From Candidatus Moraniibacteriota bacterium (GTDB taxonomy: Bacteria > Patescibacteriota > Minisyncoccia > Moranbacterales > GCA-2747515): 62,897 nucleotides of DNA. Each line of letters begins with the position of its first letter. Positions within the stretch are counted from its first letter, which is position 1. Positions 37,222 to 61,549 of this stretch are shown here, piece by piece. The stretch lies in the NCBI GenBank assembly GCA_030592425.1, contig JAUVJK010000001.1, positions 1-62,897 of the forward strand, read 5' to 3'. Under the pieces are notes generated by a model. That model was not told the origin of the DNA and searched no databases. It was given only the letters and a program-made list of their open reading frames with translations. A program made the position numbers and the translations under genes.

Positions 37222-38730
37222 CTATTTACGACGTGAGACCTTCACTGTTGCATTTAACCCCCTCTTTATAAGTTTGATAACCTTCTCTACAGCAATTGTC
37301 TCTTGTGTTCCGTTCATCATGTTCTTTACGATTACTGTACCATCCAATGCCTCCTTTTGTCCAATGATAAGCGTAATATCAACACCTAGCTTGTTTGCGT
37401 GACGCATCTGAGCCTTCAAAGCACCCCGACCAAAGCTCTCTGCAACAAGAATGCCATTTTTTTCCAATTCAGAAAAAAGGCAAAGACTTTTTTTCTTTCC
37501 TAGGTCACCAAGTTGTGCCAAATAAACACGTGGCTTTGGTGGCGTATATTCACGTGCTTTTACACGTTTCATCTCGATCACGAGACGATCCAAACCAATC
37601 CCAAAACCAATTGCTGGCGTTCGTTCGCCACCCAATGTCTCGATTAAGCCATCATAACGACCACCACCACCGAGAGAATGCCTTTTGCTTCCTTCTTCAC
37701 CAGACCAGATCTCAAAGACTGTGCGCGTATAATAATCAAAGCCTCGTACAAGTCGCGGGTTAATTACATATGGCAAATCCAATTCATCTAAATATTCTAA
37801 AAGATTTTTGAAATGTGTCCGTGATTCAGTATCAAGGTGATCAATCGATTGTGGCGCGCTTCCAGAGACTTGTGCACATTTATCTTCTTTACAATCCAAA
37901 ATACGCATTGGATTTGTTGTTAGTCGTGTACGACACGTCTGACACAATTTTCTTTTTTTCGATGTTAAATATGCTGTCAAAAGATTGACATATTCTTTGC
38001 GACATTCTGGTGTTCCAATGGAATTCACTTGAAACTGAATTTTTTTGAGACCAAGACCTGTAACAATACGATACGCTAGTTGAATGATCTGCGCATCAAG
38101 AATCGGGTCCTCTTCACCAAGAATGTCAAAATTCGCTTGCCAGTGCTCGCGATAACGACCTTCTTGCGGTCGATCGTAACGATAGAGCTGCCCTGTTGTA
38201 AAAAGTTTGATTGGCTTCGGCAATACATTCATACCATGTTGAATATATGCACGACCAACACTTGCTGTAAATTCTGGACGCAATGCAACATTATCATGAC
38301 CTTTCGTTTTGAATGTGTACATTTCCTTATCAACAATATCTGTCCCCTTCCCAATTGGACGCTCAAAAAGGTTCTGAAATTCAACAACTGGTGTGTCAAT
38401 CCGTTGAAAACCATATTCATTCTGTGCACGATCAAGAATACGACGAATCTGCTGCCAGTATGATTGTTCCCCTGGTAAAATGTCTCGCATTCCTCGCACC
38501 GTCTGTAAGATGAGCTCTTGTTCCATCTTTACTTCCTTTGGCGTTTCATTCTTTTTTTCAGCAGTAACCACATTCTTTTGTTGTAGCTTCTGCGCAGATT
38601 TTTTCTTTGTAGACTTTTTTACAATTTTCTTTTTATTTATTTTTTTTACAGGCTTTTTCTTCTTCGTCACAACTTTCTTTTTTGTAGCTCTCTTTGTAGC
38701 CACTTTCTTCCGTGATGTTTTCTTTACCAT
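37222..38730 (-). CDS. hisS: histidyl-tRNA synthetase with 68-aa Lys-rich N-terminal extension
   Basis: VRGMRDILPGE, ALRPEFTAS, YRYDRPQEGRYREHWQ, GGGGRYDGL. An alternative start at M69 (38526) would remove the extension. Confidence 0.92.
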   Translation of the reverse strand: MVKKTSRKKVATKRATKKKVVTKKKKPVKKINKKKIVKKSTKKKSAQKLQQKNVVTAEKKNETPKEVKMEQELILQTVRGMRDILPGEQSYWQQIRRILDRAQNEYGFQRIDTPVVEFQNLFERPIGKGTDIVDKEMYTFKTKGHDNVALRPEFTASVGRAYIQHGMNVLPKPIKLFTTGQLYRYDRPQEGRYREHWQANFDILGEEDPILDAQIIQLAYRIVTGLGLKKIQFQVNSIGTPECRKEYVNLLTAYLTSKKRKLCQTCRTRLTTNPMRILDCKEDKCAQVSGSAPQSIDHLDTESRTHFKNLLEYLDELDLPYVINPRLVRGFDYYTRTVFEIWSGEEGSKRHSLGGGGRYDGLIETLGGERTPAIGFGIGLDRLVIEMKRVKAREYTPPKPRVYLAQLGDLGKKKSLCLFSELEKNGILVAESFGRGALKAQMRHANKLGVDITLIIGQKEALDGTVIVKNMMNGTQETIAVEKVIKLIKRGLNATVKVSRRK

Positions 38731-50978: not shown

Positions 50979-51060
50979 GCCGAAGTGGTGGAATTGGTAT
51001 ACACGCACGACTCAAAATCGTGTGCTTCACAGCATGAGGGTTCGAGTCCCTCCTTCGGCA
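50979..51060 (+). tRNA. tRNA-Leu (anticodon CAA)
   Basis: Acceptor GCCGAAG/CTTCGGC plus discriminator A. Anticodon stem CACGA/TCGTG with loop CTCAAAA (CAA at 51013-51015). Long variable arm. T-arm GAGGG-TTCGAGT-CCCTC. CCA is not encoded. Confidence 0.93.
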
Positions 51061-51488
51061 CACTAGACGATGGACTTTTATCTCCCGAAATGTAGTGGAG
51101 GGAGACAAAATCCAGTTGTAACAATACAATGAGAGTTCAATTCTCTCTCCGGGCACAATCTGTTCGCTAGGCATACGCTTGGCGAGTCATTAATCACAAT
51201 TACGATCATTGATATTCTTAGTATAATGGCACTTATATCTACCAAAAATATCTAGAAAGCATCTCACATCAAAACTGTTTATATCGCGTTGAATAGCGTT
51301 ATCGAAGCAAAAAATGATATCCCTGTCATTGAACAGTCACCTTGTAATCCGAATGTAACTAATATCATATAGAAAGTAATACTTTTGAAGTGTATGCGAG
51401 AAATACAGGCAAAGGTAGACTATATTTACTCGCACCCTATTCGCGTGTACAAAAAATCTCACAGTAACATATCTGTACCATAATATGC

Positions 51489-58343: not shown

Positions 58344-61340
58344 TTATACAACAATACTTACTAATTTTCCCTGAACGAAGATCACTTTTCGTACTTTTTT
58401 GCCGTCAATAAATTTCTGTACTTTTTTGCTAGCGAGGGCTTTTTCTTTTGCATCATCTTCTGCAATATCAGCTGCGACCATGATCTTATCACGTACTTTT
58501 CCATTTACTTGTACAACAAGCTCAATCTCGTCATCACTGAGATATTTTTCATCATAGACTGGCCAATTCTCTTCGATCAGAAATGATGTATTGCCCATTT
58601 GTTCCCAAAGCTCTTGTGTTATATGTGGCGCAAAGGGACAGAGGATCTTCAGAAAAGCACCAAAGTCTTCTGTAGAAATACTCTTTTGCTTTTCGATATC
58701 ATTGGAGAGGATCATCATTGCAGAAATTGCTGTATTATATTTCATCTCTTCAATATCGTCACCCACTTTATTGATCGTTTTGTGCAGTGTTTTTTTCAAA
58801 GCATTGGGTGTTTCACCACCAACATAGTCTCTGTAGTAGATCTTCCAAATACGTTCGATGAATTTTCGTGACCCAATCATTCCTTCTGTATTCCATGCGA
58901 CACTCGCATCAAAAGGCCCCATAAACATTTCATACGTACGAAACGTGTCAGCACCAAAACGCTCGATCACATCATCCGGATTGATCACATTTCCCCAACG
59001 TTTACTCATCTTTCGTCCATCCTCTGCTATGATCAGTCCAACAGTCTGTAATTTCGCAAAAGGTTCGTCATGTGACACAACACCAATATCAAAAAGGAAT
59101 TTATGCCAAAATCGTGCATAGATCAAGTGCCGCGTCGCATGTTCTTCGCCACCAACATAAAAATCAACAGGTGACCAATACTTTTCTTTCTGAGGATCTA
59201 CAAGAGCGGTGTCATTCTTTGGATCAATATAGCGCAAATAATACCAACTCGATCCTGCCCACTGTGGCATCGTATCTGTTTCACGCCGCGCAGATCCACC
59301 ACACTGTGGACACTCTGTATTAACCCATTCATCAATTCCCGCGAGTGGCGATTCTCCTGTATCCGTCGGCTCATAATGCTCCACATCTGGAAGTACCAAT
59401 GGCAATTCTTCTTCTGGCATTGGTACAACACCACACTTCTCACAATGAATAAGTGGAATTGGCTCGCCCCAATACCGCTGCCGTCCAAATACCCAGTCAC
59501 GCAATCGATAAGATGTCTTTTCTTCAGCGAGGTCCTTTTGTGCAAGCCACTGCGTGATCTTTGATCGTGCTTCCTCTGACGTAAGCCCGTCGAAATCACC
59601 AGAGTTTACAAGAATACCATCTTCTTCATAGCATTCTTCGAAATTTTTCACTTTTTCCCATGCAGCGTCACTCTTCGGACGAATCGAAACTGTAAGGGGA
59701 ATATTATACTTCTTTGCCATCACAAAATCACGCGCATCATGCGCATCAGCGAACACCGCGCCCGTACCATAGTACGCAAGAACAAAATCTGAAATCCACA
59801 CAGGAATCTCCTGTCCAGTCGCTGGATTGATCACTGTCACACTCTTAAGCTCAACACCCGTTTTTTCTTTATCTACAGCGGTACGATCAATCTCTGTCTT
59901 CTTCTGTGCTGCCTGGATATATTCTTCAACCTCAGTTCCATTTGATATTTTTTCTTTTAATATTTCTACAAGCTCATGTTCCGGTGCAAGAATCACAAAC
60001 GCACCAGAAAAGATCGTATCAACACGCGTCGTGAATACTTTTATAGAGATGTCTTGCACGCCTGAAATAAGATCCAATAACGCTGGGATCTCCTGCTTTT
60101 TTAGCGTACTACCAAAGTGACCTCTATCGTTAAATTTTATGAAGTTCGCATCAAGACCGTGTGCATTTGTTTCTCCATGACTAAATGATACCCATTTATC
60201 ATCTGTTGAATGAAGAACGACAAAATCATCACAATGCTTTTTTATCGCTTCAAAATCATAACCGGCATCTGTATAAAATCCATGTGTATTGTCTTTTGTG
60301 TGTTTCTCGTCACATTTTGCATAGTTCGTTGCAACAAGGATTACTTTTTTTACCTTAAAGTTTTCTGGTTGTTTTTCAAGCCATCGCAAAATCGCAACAC
60401 CTCCACGAGAATGCCCTATAAGAATTGTGTCCTCAGTTGGCTTAGTATCATCTAACTGTGACAGCCACTCGTCCATGTGCGGATCATCAGCATGCAATAA
60501 AACTGGTGCAACAAATGGAATTTTTTTCTTTTGCATTTCTGCCGCAAGCCATGGATACCATTTTTGAGAGGGATCAGTATCTTTGCCATGCATCAAGATC
60601 ACTTTTTGTGACGTACTTTTTAATTCTTCATTCTTAATTCTAAATTCTATTTCTGCACCTTCACTTCTGCCGATCCAATTCCTCTGTGATTGCTTGATAT
60701 TTTCTTGCCAATCGAGCCCATCGAGATCTGCAAGCATGCGATCTGCATAGTCAGTGATCTTAATCACCCATTGTGGCATTTTTTTCTTTTCGATTGGTGT
60801 ACCACAACGCTCACAAGCGCCGTCCTCAAGGTCTTCGTTGGCAAGTCCCGTCTTACATGACGGACACCAGTTGATCGGCTCATGCGAACGATAGACAAGA
60901 TCTTTCTTGAACATTTGCAAGAATGTCCACTGCGTCCATTTATAATAGTCAGGATCAGTTGTGGAAAATTCTCGATCCCAATCATAGTTAAGTGAGATCT
61001 TCTCGATCTGAGTCTTGAATGTGGCAATATTCTCTTGTGTCGCAACACGTGGATGAACTTTATTTTTGAGTGCATATTGTTCTGCCGGCAAACCAAAAGC
61101 ATCCCAGCCCATTGGATGAAGCACATTAAAGCCTTTCATTTTCTTGTACCGCGCAATAATATCGGTGGCGATATAGCCCTTAGGATGCCCCACATGCAAT
61201 CCTACGCCAGAAGGATAAGGAAACATATCAAGAATATAGAATTTTTCTTTGTCAGCATCTTCTGTCGTTTTATAGACACCAGAAGTTTCCCATTTTTCCC
61301 GCCATTTTTGCTCAATTTTCTTATGTTCGTAAAGTTCCAT
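58344..61340 (-). CDS. leuS: leucyl-tRNA synthetase carrying an in-frame alpha/beta-hydrolase insertion
   Basis: HVGHP (HIGH), KMSKR (KMSKS), editing-domain motifs TTRVDT and YGTGAVFADAHDARD; 998 aa. Confidence 0.97.
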   Translation of the reverse strand: MELYEHKKIEQKWREKWETSGVYKTTEDADKEKFYILDMFPYPSGVGLHVGHPKGYIATDIIARYKKMKGFNVLHPMGWDAFGLPAEQYALKNKVHPRVATQENIATFKTQIEKISLNYDWDREFSTTDPDYYKWTQWTFLQMFKKDLVYRSHEPINWCPSCKTGLANEDLEDGACERCGTPIEKKKMPQWVIKITDYADRMLADLDGLDWQENIKQSQRNWIGRSEGAEIEFRIKNEELKSTSQKVILMHGKDTDPSQKWYPWLAAEMQKKKIPFVAPVLLHADDPHMDEWLSQLDDTKPTEDTILIGHSRGGVAILRWLEKQPENFKVKKVILVATNYAKCDEKHTKDNTHGFYTDAGYDFEAIKKHCDDFVVLHSTDDKWVSFSHGETNAHGLDANFIKFNDRGHFGSTLKKQEIPALLDLISGVQDISIKVFTTRVDTIFSGAFVILAPEHELVEILKEKISNGTEVEEYIQAAQKKTEIDRTAVDKEKTGVELKSVTVINPATGQEIPVWISDFVLAYYGTGAVFADAHDARDFVMAKKYNIPLTVSIRPKSDAAWEKVKNFEECYEEDGILVNSGDFDGLTSEEARSKITQWLAQKDLAEEKTSYRLRDWVFGRQRYWGEPIPLIHCEKCGVVPMPEEELPLVLPDVEHYEPTDTGESPLAGIDEWVNTECPQCGGSARRETDTMPQWAGSSWYYLRYIDPKNDTALVDPQKEKYWSPVDFYVGGEEHATRHLIYARFWHKFLFDIGVVSHDEPFAKLQTVGLIIAEDGRKMSKRWGNVINPDDVIERFGADTFRTYEMFMGPFDASVAWNTEGMIGSRKFIERIWKIYYRDYVGGETPNALKKTLHKTINKVGDDIEEMKYNTAISAMMILSNDIEKQKSISTEDFGAFLKILCPFAPHITQELWEQMGNTSFLIEENWPVYDEKYLSDDEIELVVQVNGKVRDKIMVAADIAEDDAKEKALASKKVQKFIDGKKVRKVIFVQGKLVSIVV
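60057..60623 (-). other. about 190-aa serine-hydrolase (RBBP9/YdeN-like alpha/beta) domain inserted in LeuRS
   Basis: LeuRS aa ~240-428: KVILMHG, WYPWL, ILIGHSRGG (Ser codon 60408-60410), VILVATNY, VVLHSTDDKWV, NDRGHF. Confidence 0.75.
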
Positions 61341-61549
61341 AATTTATGCTTTTCATGATCTTTTATCTTTCTATACTATCGCAATTCTACCCTTTGGACA
61401 AATTTTTATACCGAGAAATTACATGCAACATCTCATCACAACATGACTATACAAAAAAGAATACCGGTATTAATACCTGTATTCTTTTTTTGTCCAATAT
61501 CCTCAATAAAAGAAGTCTAGTGAGTTTTTGTAGATTCACCTTCTTCTTC

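Follow-up and report, generated by a model that had tools for sequence, protein, structure and literature searches.

Aminoacyl-tRNA synthetases are among the most conserved proteins, and the architecture of the bacterial leucyl-tRNA synthetase (LeuRS) is regarded as settled. Hydrolytic domains placed within or beside a synthetase are known in the form of the editing modules CP1, ProRS INS, PheRS B3/4, YbaK/ProXp, AlaX and DTD; to our knowledge, none of these has an alpha/beta-hydrolase fold or a Ser-Asp-His triad. The CP1 domain is itself an inserted hydrolytic domain (PMC4138327). Another precedent is provided by IleRS with a GNAT domain (NCBIfam NF040702, 'ileS_w_GNAT'), a class Ia bacterial synthetase with an extra small-enzyme domain. 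The known members of the RBBP9/YdeN family of serine hydrolases (PF06821; structures 2QS9, 7OEX and 1UXO), on the other hand, are free-standing proteins of about 185 aa. Here we analyzed a window, i.e. the whole stretch of 62,897 nucleotides of contig JAUVJK010000001.1 from a Candidatus Moraniibacteriota bacterium (assembly GCA_030592425.1), and found that its leuS gene encodes a LeuRS with a segment nested in the first beta-hairpin loop of CP1 that, as judged from sequence comparisons and structural models, is an autonomous RBBP9/YdeN-family serine hydrolase with an intact predicted triad (hereafter referred to as the guest). The window LeuRS resembles the editing modules in having a hydrolytic domain within the synthetase, it differs from the NF040702 case in both the synthetase and the guest family, and, unlike the known RBBP9/YdeN proteins, its hydrolase lies inside an aminoacyl-tRNA synthetase.

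The host is encoded by a single, uninterrupted open reading frame (ORF) of 998 aa on the minus strand, with no stops and no frameshifts, and its nearest relatives are LeuRS of Moraniibacteriota. The protein matches the NCBIfam model TIGR00396 (leuS_bact) with 1003.2 bits (cutoff 548.4), the match being split into two parts with an unmatched middle between them, and it matches the LeuRS structures of T. thermophilus and E. coli with E-values of 1e-223 to 1e-196. It is collinear with bacterial LeuRS throughout, including the HIGH and KMSKS signatures, ZN1, ZN2, the CP1 editing motifs and the C-terminal domain, and the Pfam matches comprise the class I catalytic core, the editing domain PF13603, the anticodon-binding domain and PF06821. 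The class I signatures read HVGH at aa 49-52 (nt 61185-61196) and KMSKR at aa 777-781 (nt 58998-59012). The CP1 domain scored 179.7 bits (PF13603; aa 430-599 against profile positions 20-184), and its editing motifs IKVFTTRVDT and GTGAVFADAHDARD were located at aa 433-442 and aa 525-538, respectively; Asp538 corresponds to D345 of the E. coli enzyme. Judging by these features, the host is a complete LeuRS in which HIGH, KMSKS, both zinc knuckles and the CP1 editing motifs are intact. It shares its full-length collinearity with the minimal bacterial LeuRS (TIGR00396; T. thermophilus 1H3N/2BYT, E. coli 4AQ7) and, unlike these, it has 191 extra residues at the hairpin loop that matches T. thermophilus residues ~235-241. 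The features of the gene, all on the minus strand, are as follows.

58344..61340 (-): leuS ORF, 998 aa, bacterial-type LeuRS with nested hydrolase (TIGR00396 and structure matches)
60618..60671 (-): first strand and loop of the CP1-entry beta-hairpin, GRSEGAEIEF-RIKNEELK, aa 224-241 (insert-free alignment; strand 225-235 in the AlphaFold2 model)
60606..60617 (-): N-terminal linker STSQ, aa 242-245 (model confidence below 50 at aa 239-243)
60063..60605 (-): guest, RBBP9/YdeN-family serine hydrolase of the alpha lineage, aa 246-426 (PF06821, AlphaFold2, Foldseek)
60408..60410 (-): codon of the predicted nucleophile Ser311, in the GHSRGG elbow at aa 309-314 (opposite RBBP9 Ser75)
60198..60200 (-): codon of the predicted catalytic acid Asp381, HSTDD (opposite RBBP9 Asp138)
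60117..60119 (-): codon of the predicted catalytic His408, RGHF (opposite RBBP9 His165)
60045..60062 (-): C-terminal linker GVQDIS, aa 427-432 (low model confidence; poorly conserved compared with P0121, see below)
59505..60044 (-): rest of the CP1 editing domain, aa 433-612 (PF13603; TTRVDT at nt 60015-60032 and GTGAVFADAHDARD at nt 59727-59768)

The limits of the insert were drawn by comparison with insert-free LeuRS of Patescibacteria (~795 aa), in which the spacing between WIGRS and TTRxDT is 24 residues, versus 215 in the window. The insert-free hairpin reads '...IEFGIKNEELK-IEVFTTRPDT', while in the window '...IEFRIKNEELK' is followed by 'STSQ-KVILMHG...LLDLIS-GVQDIS' and then by 'IKVFTTRVDT'. 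Because of this comparison we place the inserted segment at aa 242-432 (nt 60045-60617), which amounts to 191 extra residues. The T. thermophilus LeuRS covers aa 1-240 and 429-998 of the window protein and leaves the insert unmatched. An initial annotation of this DNA had proposed about 190 extra in-frame residues at this location, which agrees with our count, and the motifs it quoted are all present at essentially the positions it gave; its limits, 60057-60623 (aa 240-428), need to be shifted to those given above, and GRSEGAEIEF occupies aa 224-233, so that its start had been misplaced by one residue. Its assumption of an origin from Patescibacteria agrees with the Moraniibacteriota as nearest relatives. 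The guest spans the whole small enzyme, from the second residue to the last helix, and is joined to the host by linkers of four and six residues, its C-terminal end lying six residues ahead of Thr437 of the T-rich editing motif. In the full-length AlphaFold2 model (predicted local distance difference test, pLDDT, 85.3; predicted template modelling score, pTM, 0.73), the hairpin strands 225-235 and 432-437 are kept and the guest is folded between them; the 10-residue blocks 411-420 and 421-430 have mean pLDDT values of 59 and 65. The linker stretches (aa 235-244 and 428-432) are 40% identical to those of the related protein P0121, versus 85-89% elsewhere, and the ratio of nonsynonymous to synonymous substitution rates (dN/dS) is not computable for them.

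The hydrolase fold accounts for essentially the entire insert. Firstly, PF06821 (Ser_hydrolase) matches aa 248-419 with 55.9 bits when the whole protein is searched and with 60.5 bits when the insert alone is used, against a cutoff of 22, and the match covers profile positions 2-164 of 172. Secondly, the AlphaFold2 model of the insert, built from a 65-sequence alignment, has a pLDDT of 93 and a pTM of 0.89, and its best Foldseek matches are YdeN (1uxo, E-value 1e-14, template modelling scores 0.80/0.87) and RBBP9 (7oex/2qs9, scores 0.74-0.83), followed at a distance in the PDB by other esterases, lipases and peptidases. Human RBBP9 and B. subtilis YdeN are also the closest solved structures by sequence. 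Thirdly, the family motifs are present (KVILMHG at aa 246-252, HSTDDKW at aa 377-383 and DRGHF at aa 405-409), and Ser311, Asp381 and His408 are invariant in the 45- and 65-sequence alignments A1 and A2. The guest thus belongs to the RBBP9/YdeN family by sequence, fold and triad, as the initial annotation had proposed, and it is apparently a complete, active enzyme of the esterase type. Over ~90% of its length, it shares 64-66% identity with free-standing hydrolases of Patescibacteria (~180-195 aa), some of which are fused to a NUDIX domain (309-319 aa). The lineage formed by these proteins, which we call alpha, has an invariant Arg right after the nucleophile (GHSRGG), a position at which RBBP9 has Ser76. 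Neither Pfam nor NCBIfam gave a match of the insert to the known trans-editing or deacylase families YbaK/ProX, AlaX, DTD and Pth; in NCBIfam the insert matches no family, and this collection holds no model for a LeuRS with a hydrolase domain. A tblastn search of the window found no second copy of the hydrolase and no NUDIX copy.

The fixed-site, in-frame insertion in an essential protein, the patchy occurrence among relatives and the changing content, which are described below, are reminiscent of inteins and of Rickettsia palindromic elements. Unlike inteins, the insert has no Hint or homing-endonuclease domain among the Pfam matches of the protein or of the insert itself, and the guest is a conserved enzyme that stays part of the protein. 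The absence of a stop, a frameshift and an intein signature had also been pointed out in the initial annotation. Sequence alone neither indicates nor excludes that the insert is spliced or excised.

Host and guest are predicted to be made as one polypeptide, and the same architecture is present in related organisms. The protein P0121, likewise of 998 aa and encoded in an ENA assembly of independent origin, shares this architecture at 88% identity; its contig shares the gene order of the window, with a CitMHS/ArsB transporter upstream of leuS. A codon comparison between the two, for which dS is ~1.3 and hence near saturation, gave a dN/dS of 0.07 for the guest (85% amino acid identity), 0.05 for the LeuRS backbone (89%) and 0.05 for CP1 (84%), a pattern indicating that host and guest are both under purifying selection. 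The architecture was also found in two complete genomes (CP175956.1 and OY970382.1) and in dozens of clusters from NCBI, JGI, ENA and Logan. The initial annotation had regarded this as an undescribed synthetase architecture. In the literature searched, which covers few subscription journals, we indeed found no description of a LeuRS or another aminoacyl-tRNA synthetase with such a nested hydrolase in Patescibacteria; it is not a one-off, though, considering the dozens of public LeuRS clusters that possess it.

The distribution of guests was assessed in the window protein (Q) and its 120 best-scoring clusters, counting insertions of at least 40 aa; since our censuses comprise the best 120 clusters per search and a pattern-seeded genome scan, the counts given here and below are samples. 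It should also be noted that the organism labels of several metagenome-assembled genomes (MAGs), such as 'Micavibrio', 'Gammaproteobacteria' and 'Woesearchaeota', were taken from the records and are possibly unreliable. Guests are present in 65 of the 121 LeuRS and occupy three sites, singly or in combination. The hairpin loop of the window guest is site A (T. thermophilus ~235-241), site B is a loop within CP1, and site C follows immediately upon the first CxxC of the ZN2 knuckle, between 'HCExCK' and 'VPVPEEELP'. The term 'CP1 hairpin' as used in the LeuRS literature refers to the ZN1 region, which is distinct from the site A loop (PMC4138327). A guest was found at A only in 24 proteins, at A and B in 6, at B only in 29, at C only in 3, at all three sites in 1, at B and C in 2, and at none in 56. 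The guests at site A are PF06821 hydrolases of at least five lineages with a mutual identity of only 25-35%, as well as tandem double hydrolases, a complete PD-(D/E)XK domain (PF13366, 110 bits), Ham1-like domains, and ASCH together with a hydrolase. Site B holds mostly NUDIX domains and, in one case, a nucleotidyltransferase, and site C holds hydrolases or NUDIX domains. Two hydrolase lineages occur at more than one site: beta at site A in P0122/P0192 and at site C in P0176, and gamma at site A in P0187 and its relatives and at site C in P0196/P0230/P0233. Of the 45 nested or fused PF06821 domains, 39 have the predicted triad residues in alignment, as does every alpha copy; among those that deviate are P0178, with Ile for Ser, and the first domain in the P0125 tandem, with Tyr for His. 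The CP1 motifs (TTRxDT and GTGA...HDxRD) are kept in every class of these 121 LeuRS, with or without guest, the sole exception being one insert-free sequence whose GTG motif was unmatched by the search pattern. Based on these sequences, guest carriage is a recurrent association between LeuRS and hydrolases in Patescibacteria and in DPANN-labelled MAGs. As far as the literature could be searched, neither such insertion hot spots near CP1 nor the turnover of guests in LeuRS have been reported. These data define a lineage in which LeuRS routinely bears an extra, predicted catalytic domain beside its proofreading domain while close relatives bear others.

The turnover becomes apparent when the content of site A is listed along with the backbone identity to the window protein.

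P0121, 89%: alpha hydrolase
P0126, 87%: PD-(D/E)XK
P0124, 83%: delta hydrolase, 29% identical to alpha
P0127 and P0128, 75%: epsilon hydrolase
P0131-P0133, 74%: none
P0123 and P0125, 74%: tandem hydrolases

The gene for P0126 (L054 4001-6958; L055 2971-5928) is syntenic with the window over ATP synthase, CBS, transporter, small ORF and leuS, on four contigs. Since P0126 is encoded at the syntenic locus and bears a different guest, the guest must have been replaced in an orthologous gene. Together, the syntenic leuS genes have, at the same position, an alpha hydrolase (window and L053), a nuclease-fold PD-(D/E)XK domain (L054 and L055) or a delta hydrolase (P0124). Backbone identity of Q to P0126 and P0124, computed in a sliding window, gave no indication of a recombination break at site A.

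Guest and CP1 do not show the same divergence in all comparisons. Compared with P0121, the guest (60063-60605) and CP1 (59505-60044) evolve equally. Compared per 30-aa block with P0122 and P0123, the guest is 63-80% and 50-80% identical to that of the window, respectively, and the adjoining CP1 only 36-66%, which could reflect either lateral exchange of guests between leuS alleles or faster evolution of CP1 there. Another observation concerns the junction at the C-terminal side of site A guests, where the linker reads 'S(R/C)LRGNDN' in P0125 (L006 4542-4561), P0127 and P0128. The L006 linker forms a perfect in-frame GC-rich hairpin, ATTCCCGC-cttc-GCGGGAAT, and the same palindrome occurs twice in L031 (7055-7107). 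It may be a small palindromic repeat element that was inserted in frame at the junction. The hairpin ATTCCCGC-N4-GCGGGAAT was not found in the window, and no palindromes were found in the odd-looking linkers of L004 and L012.

The alpha lineage also exists outside LeuRS. A profile-based scan of one genome per GTDB species yielded 52 alpha loci: 33 free-standing copies, 3-4 fusions to NUDIX, 11 copies nested in LeuRS, one nested in an ATP-dependent DNA ligase and one in a GT4 glycosyltransferase. LeuRS therefore hosts 11 of the 13 nested copies in these species representatives, and all 11 are at site A. Cluster representatives at 50% identity added copies nested in PheRS-beta, UvrB and Met-tRNA formyltransferase (Fmt), and a Ham1 fusion. 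The guest of PheRS-beta is located between the B3/4 editing domain and B5; PheRS-beta was considered as a second hot host and rejected, as only 2 of its 120 closest relatives have a guest, versus 65 of 121 for LeuRS. When 151 alpha domains were placed in a neighbour-joining tree, parsimony required 9 state changes to explain the 15 copies nested in LeuRS (range over 200 bootstraps, 8-12), from which it appears that the lineage has switched between the LeuRS-nested and other states at least eight times. The clade of the window guest (Q, P0121, P0122 and P0123) was recovered in 181 of 200 bootstraps, the DNA-ligase guest grouped with a LeuRS guest as its sister in 200/200, and the GT4 guest did so with another one in 188/200. 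A sister relation between the nested copy L032 and L022, a free copy beside leuS, was dropped since it was obtained in 0 of 200 bootstraps. Five of 36 loci with free-standing alpha genes (L022, L035, L049, L051 and L042) are on the same strand as leuS and less than 4 kb from it, in both gene orders, and at L022 the stop and start codons of the alpha gene and leuS overlap by 4 nt. By a rough estimate (8-9 genes per 8 kb in a genome of ~1000 genes) about 0.3 such neighbours are expected per 36 loci, which themselves are not phylogenetically independent. LeuRS (4) and NUDIX (4), followed by another Ser_hydrolase (3), are the commonest Pfam families among 120 neighbour ORFs, which represent 111 families in all. 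In the two complete genomes, the LeuRS-nested copy is the only alpha copy found by the pattern scan.

These data raise the question of what the guest does in LeuRS. Our preferred reading, to which we assign a probability of roughly 0.45 and which we slightly favour over the idea of a passenger, is that the guest is an accessory, LeuRS-coupled aminoacyl-ester hydrolase. According to this reading, it would act beside CP1 on aminoacyl esters, and its serine nucleophile would attack the aminoacyl carbonyl of a substrate with a free alpha-amine, as in RBBP9-type chemistry. The substrate might be the 3' end of a mis-acylated or unwanted aminoacyl-tRNA, or an aminoacyl-nucleotide by-product. Because the CP1 editing motifs are intact, the guest activity would supplement CP1 editing and would not replace it. 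We know of no bacterial RBBP9/YdeN member with a known substrate. Valacyclovir is an example of an ester between an amino acid and a nucleoside analogue. RBBP9, an aminopeptidase, cleaves off the N-terminal aminoacyl group, needs a free alpha-amine and forms an aminoacyl-enzyme (PMC8866121), and a paper that PMC7730578 cites describes it as a valacyclovir-activating enzyme.

A LeuRS-coupled role, which the initial annotation had considered in the form of an additional deacylase for mischarged tRNA-Leu, is tentatively supported by the recurrence of guests specifically in LeuRS, the use of two sites that flank CP1, the repeated transitions between LeuRS-nested and other states, the adjacency of free-standing copies to leuS, the prominence of LeuRS and NUDIX among the neighbouring families, the cases of PheRS-beta and Fmt, and the chemistry of RBBP9. 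Both rarer hosts also handle aminoacyl-tRNA, and in PheRS-beta the guest is beside the B3/4 editing domain. If the guest does act on aminoacyl esters, it would be the first case of a Ser-Asp-His, esterase-type site for quality control within a synthetase, and would provide a function for the bacterial RBBP9/YdeN family. Several points weigh against this reading. The same LeuRS loops host unrelated PD-(D/E)XK, Ham1, ASCH, NUDIX and nucleotidyltransferase domains, and therefore the permissiveness of the sites alone could explain the nesting. UvrB, ATP-dependent DNA ligase and GT4 also serve as hosts of the alpha hydrolase, which in addition occurs in fusions with NUDIX or Ham1; the majority of alpha copies are free-standing, and 31 of the 36 free-standing loci are not near leuS. 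LeuRS does not need a guest, because relatives at 74% backbone identity have none. The linkers show little conservation and have low model confidence, and no conserved interface between host and guest emerged. Finally, we know of no alpha/beta-hydrolase that serves as an aminoacyl-tRNA deacylase.

The alternative that survives best, and that we consider possible if somewhat doubtful, is that the hydrolase is a passenger, doing the job of the free-standing ~185-aa proteins, unrelated to tRNALeu, from within a permissive, solvent-exposed loop of LeuRS. The benefit could then perhaps lie in co-expression and gene economy in a reduced genome, LeuRS being favoured only as its CP1-flanking loops tolerate insertions. 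This would fit the sharing of three LeuRS sites by unrelated families, the nesting of the same lineage in UvrB, DNA ligase and GT4 and its fusions to NUDIX or Ham1, the turnover or loss of guests among LeuRS backbones that are 74-89% identical, and the poorly conserved linkers with their low pLDDT. Moreover, nested and free alpha copies have identical invariant residues, and the fact that the nested copy is the only alpha copy in the two complete genomes fits the supply of the cell's normal need. However, a passenger role leaves unexplained why 5 of 36 free-standing loci are less than 4 kb from leuS in both gene orders, why at least five hydrolase lineages have entered LeuRS at two CP1-flanking sites, and why guests are found in 2 of 120 PheRS-beta versus 65 of 121 LeuRS.

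A further alternative is that the guest is a mobile in-frame cassette, i.e. that guest segments relocate between or within genes by a DNA-level process that prefers site A of leuS. We consider this improbable, as we do its corollary that cassette mobility and the exchange of alleles shaped the pattern to a greater extent than did selection on the function of LeuRS. It could account for the at least eight transitions between LeuRS-nested and other states in alpha with every LeuRS copy at site A, for the sister relations of the ligase and GT4 guests to LeuRS guests, and for the syntenic leuS orthologues that have an alpha hydrolase, a PD-(D/E)XK domain or a delta hydrolase at the same position. 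The greater similarity of the guest than of the adjoining CP1 between Q and P0122/P0123, and the hairpin at the L006 guest junction, point in the same direction. On the other hand, the cassette was not seen to be accompanied by a recombinase, transposase, terminal repeat or target duplication, the window lacks the hairpin element, and the backbone identity is unbroken around site A. The guests are under strong purifying selection as enzymes, their junction positions and linker lengths vary by lineage, and with divergences as old as these (dS >1) ordinary rare rearrangements combined with selection could suffice. In its broadest and equally unlikely form, this idea would make the CP1-flanking loops of Patescibacteria and DPANN LeuRS a cassette platform, on which entire small-enzyme segments such as serine hydrolases, NUDIX, Ham1 and a PD-(D/E)XK domain are repeatedly inserted, swapped and moved in frame between leuS, its neighbours and occasional other essential genes by a targeted DNA-level process. 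If true, there would be domain-level mobility without inteins or introns, and the window hydrolase would be one such cassette. Whether passenger or mobile cassette, the guest would reveal how ultra-reduced genomes can house or relocate enzymes within essential genes, and it would identify LeuRS loops that tolerate insertions of ~200-400 residues.

The initial annotation had also raised the possibility that the serine hydrolase is a replacement deacylase, which took over proofreading after CP1 editing had been lost. The guest adjoins CP1, the T-rich motif has a P-to-V change (TTRVDT) and the GTGAVFADAHDARD motif is shortened, all of which would be in keeping with this possibility. However, insert-free relatives show the same TTRVDT and ...FADAHDxRD variants, the Thr and Asp of the editing motifs are kept in all classes, whether or not the host has a guest, and CP1 is under purifying selection (dN/dS 0.05), so that we regard a replacement as very unlikely. 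Lastly, an assembly chimera or sequencing artefact joining a hydrolase gene into leuS, to which the slightly lower GC content over the insert (0.35-0.39 versus 0.41-0.45 in the flanks) might point, is effectively excluded by the in-frame junctions on both sides, the recurrence of the architecture on an independent syntenic contig at 88% identity, in two complete genomes and in dozens of clusters, and the dN/dS of 0.07 in the guest.

Several minor observations were made on the gene and its surroundings. The leucine-specific domain is missing from the window LeuRS (window 58998-59030, aa ~771-781): T. thermophilus residues 580-637 are unmatched, and only AEDGR is present before KMSKR. The short peptide EDGR that replaces this domain is similar to the situation in the LeuRS of Mycoplasma mobile (3ZIU), which has the tetrapeptide GKDG (PMC3643597). 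The only tRNA gene of the window, a tRNA-Leu with anticodon CAA (50979-51061, plus strand), is located ~7 kb from leuS, and no T-box or other Rfam family was detected above threshold across the whole window. Relatives have an ORF of 115-116 aa without Pfam match between the CitMHS/ArsB transporter and leuS (L053 3373-4071; L054 3286-4000); in the window this ORF is missing, and the spacer between transporter and leuS is ~210 nt (61341-61549). The histidyl-tRNA synthetase ORF (37222-38730, minus strand) has 502 aa and a Pfam match only from residue 80 onwards, which may be due to an N-terminal extension or to a first-start ORF call that is too long.

Other observations concern the hydrolase family and its annotation. 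Genes with this architecture are inconsistently named 'leucine--tRNA ligase', 'alpha/beta fold hydrolase', 'class I tRNA ligase family protein' or 'hypothetical protein'. The families that nest in LeuRS are also found fused to each other in free-standing proteins, i.e. hydrolase-NUDIX (P0010, P0025, P0038 and others, 309-319 aa) and Ham1-hydrolase (P0241, 413 aa), which hints that hydrolase, NUDIX and Ham1 form a functional set. Two free-standing alpha loci adjoin ORFs for tRNA-intron endonuclease (alignment A3). Alpha hydrolases are present in DPANN-labelled MAGs as well (L039 2519-4852; L043 3-3389), and the copy nested in DNA ligase, from one such MAG, is at a sequence distance of only 0.17 from a LeuRS-nested copy in a 'Pacearchaeota' MAG; this suggests either mis-binning or an exchange of sequences between DPANN and the candidate phyla radiation (CPR). 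A locus of the alpha lineage (L047) bears the label Absconditabacterales. The Fmt-nested copies P0256 and P0257 have Trp at positions where Gly is invariant in the family (HSRWWVA and LHWKD), which suggests that their genomes read UGA as Gly (code 25, Gracilibacteria/Absconditabacteria) and that the records were translated with UGA as Trp.

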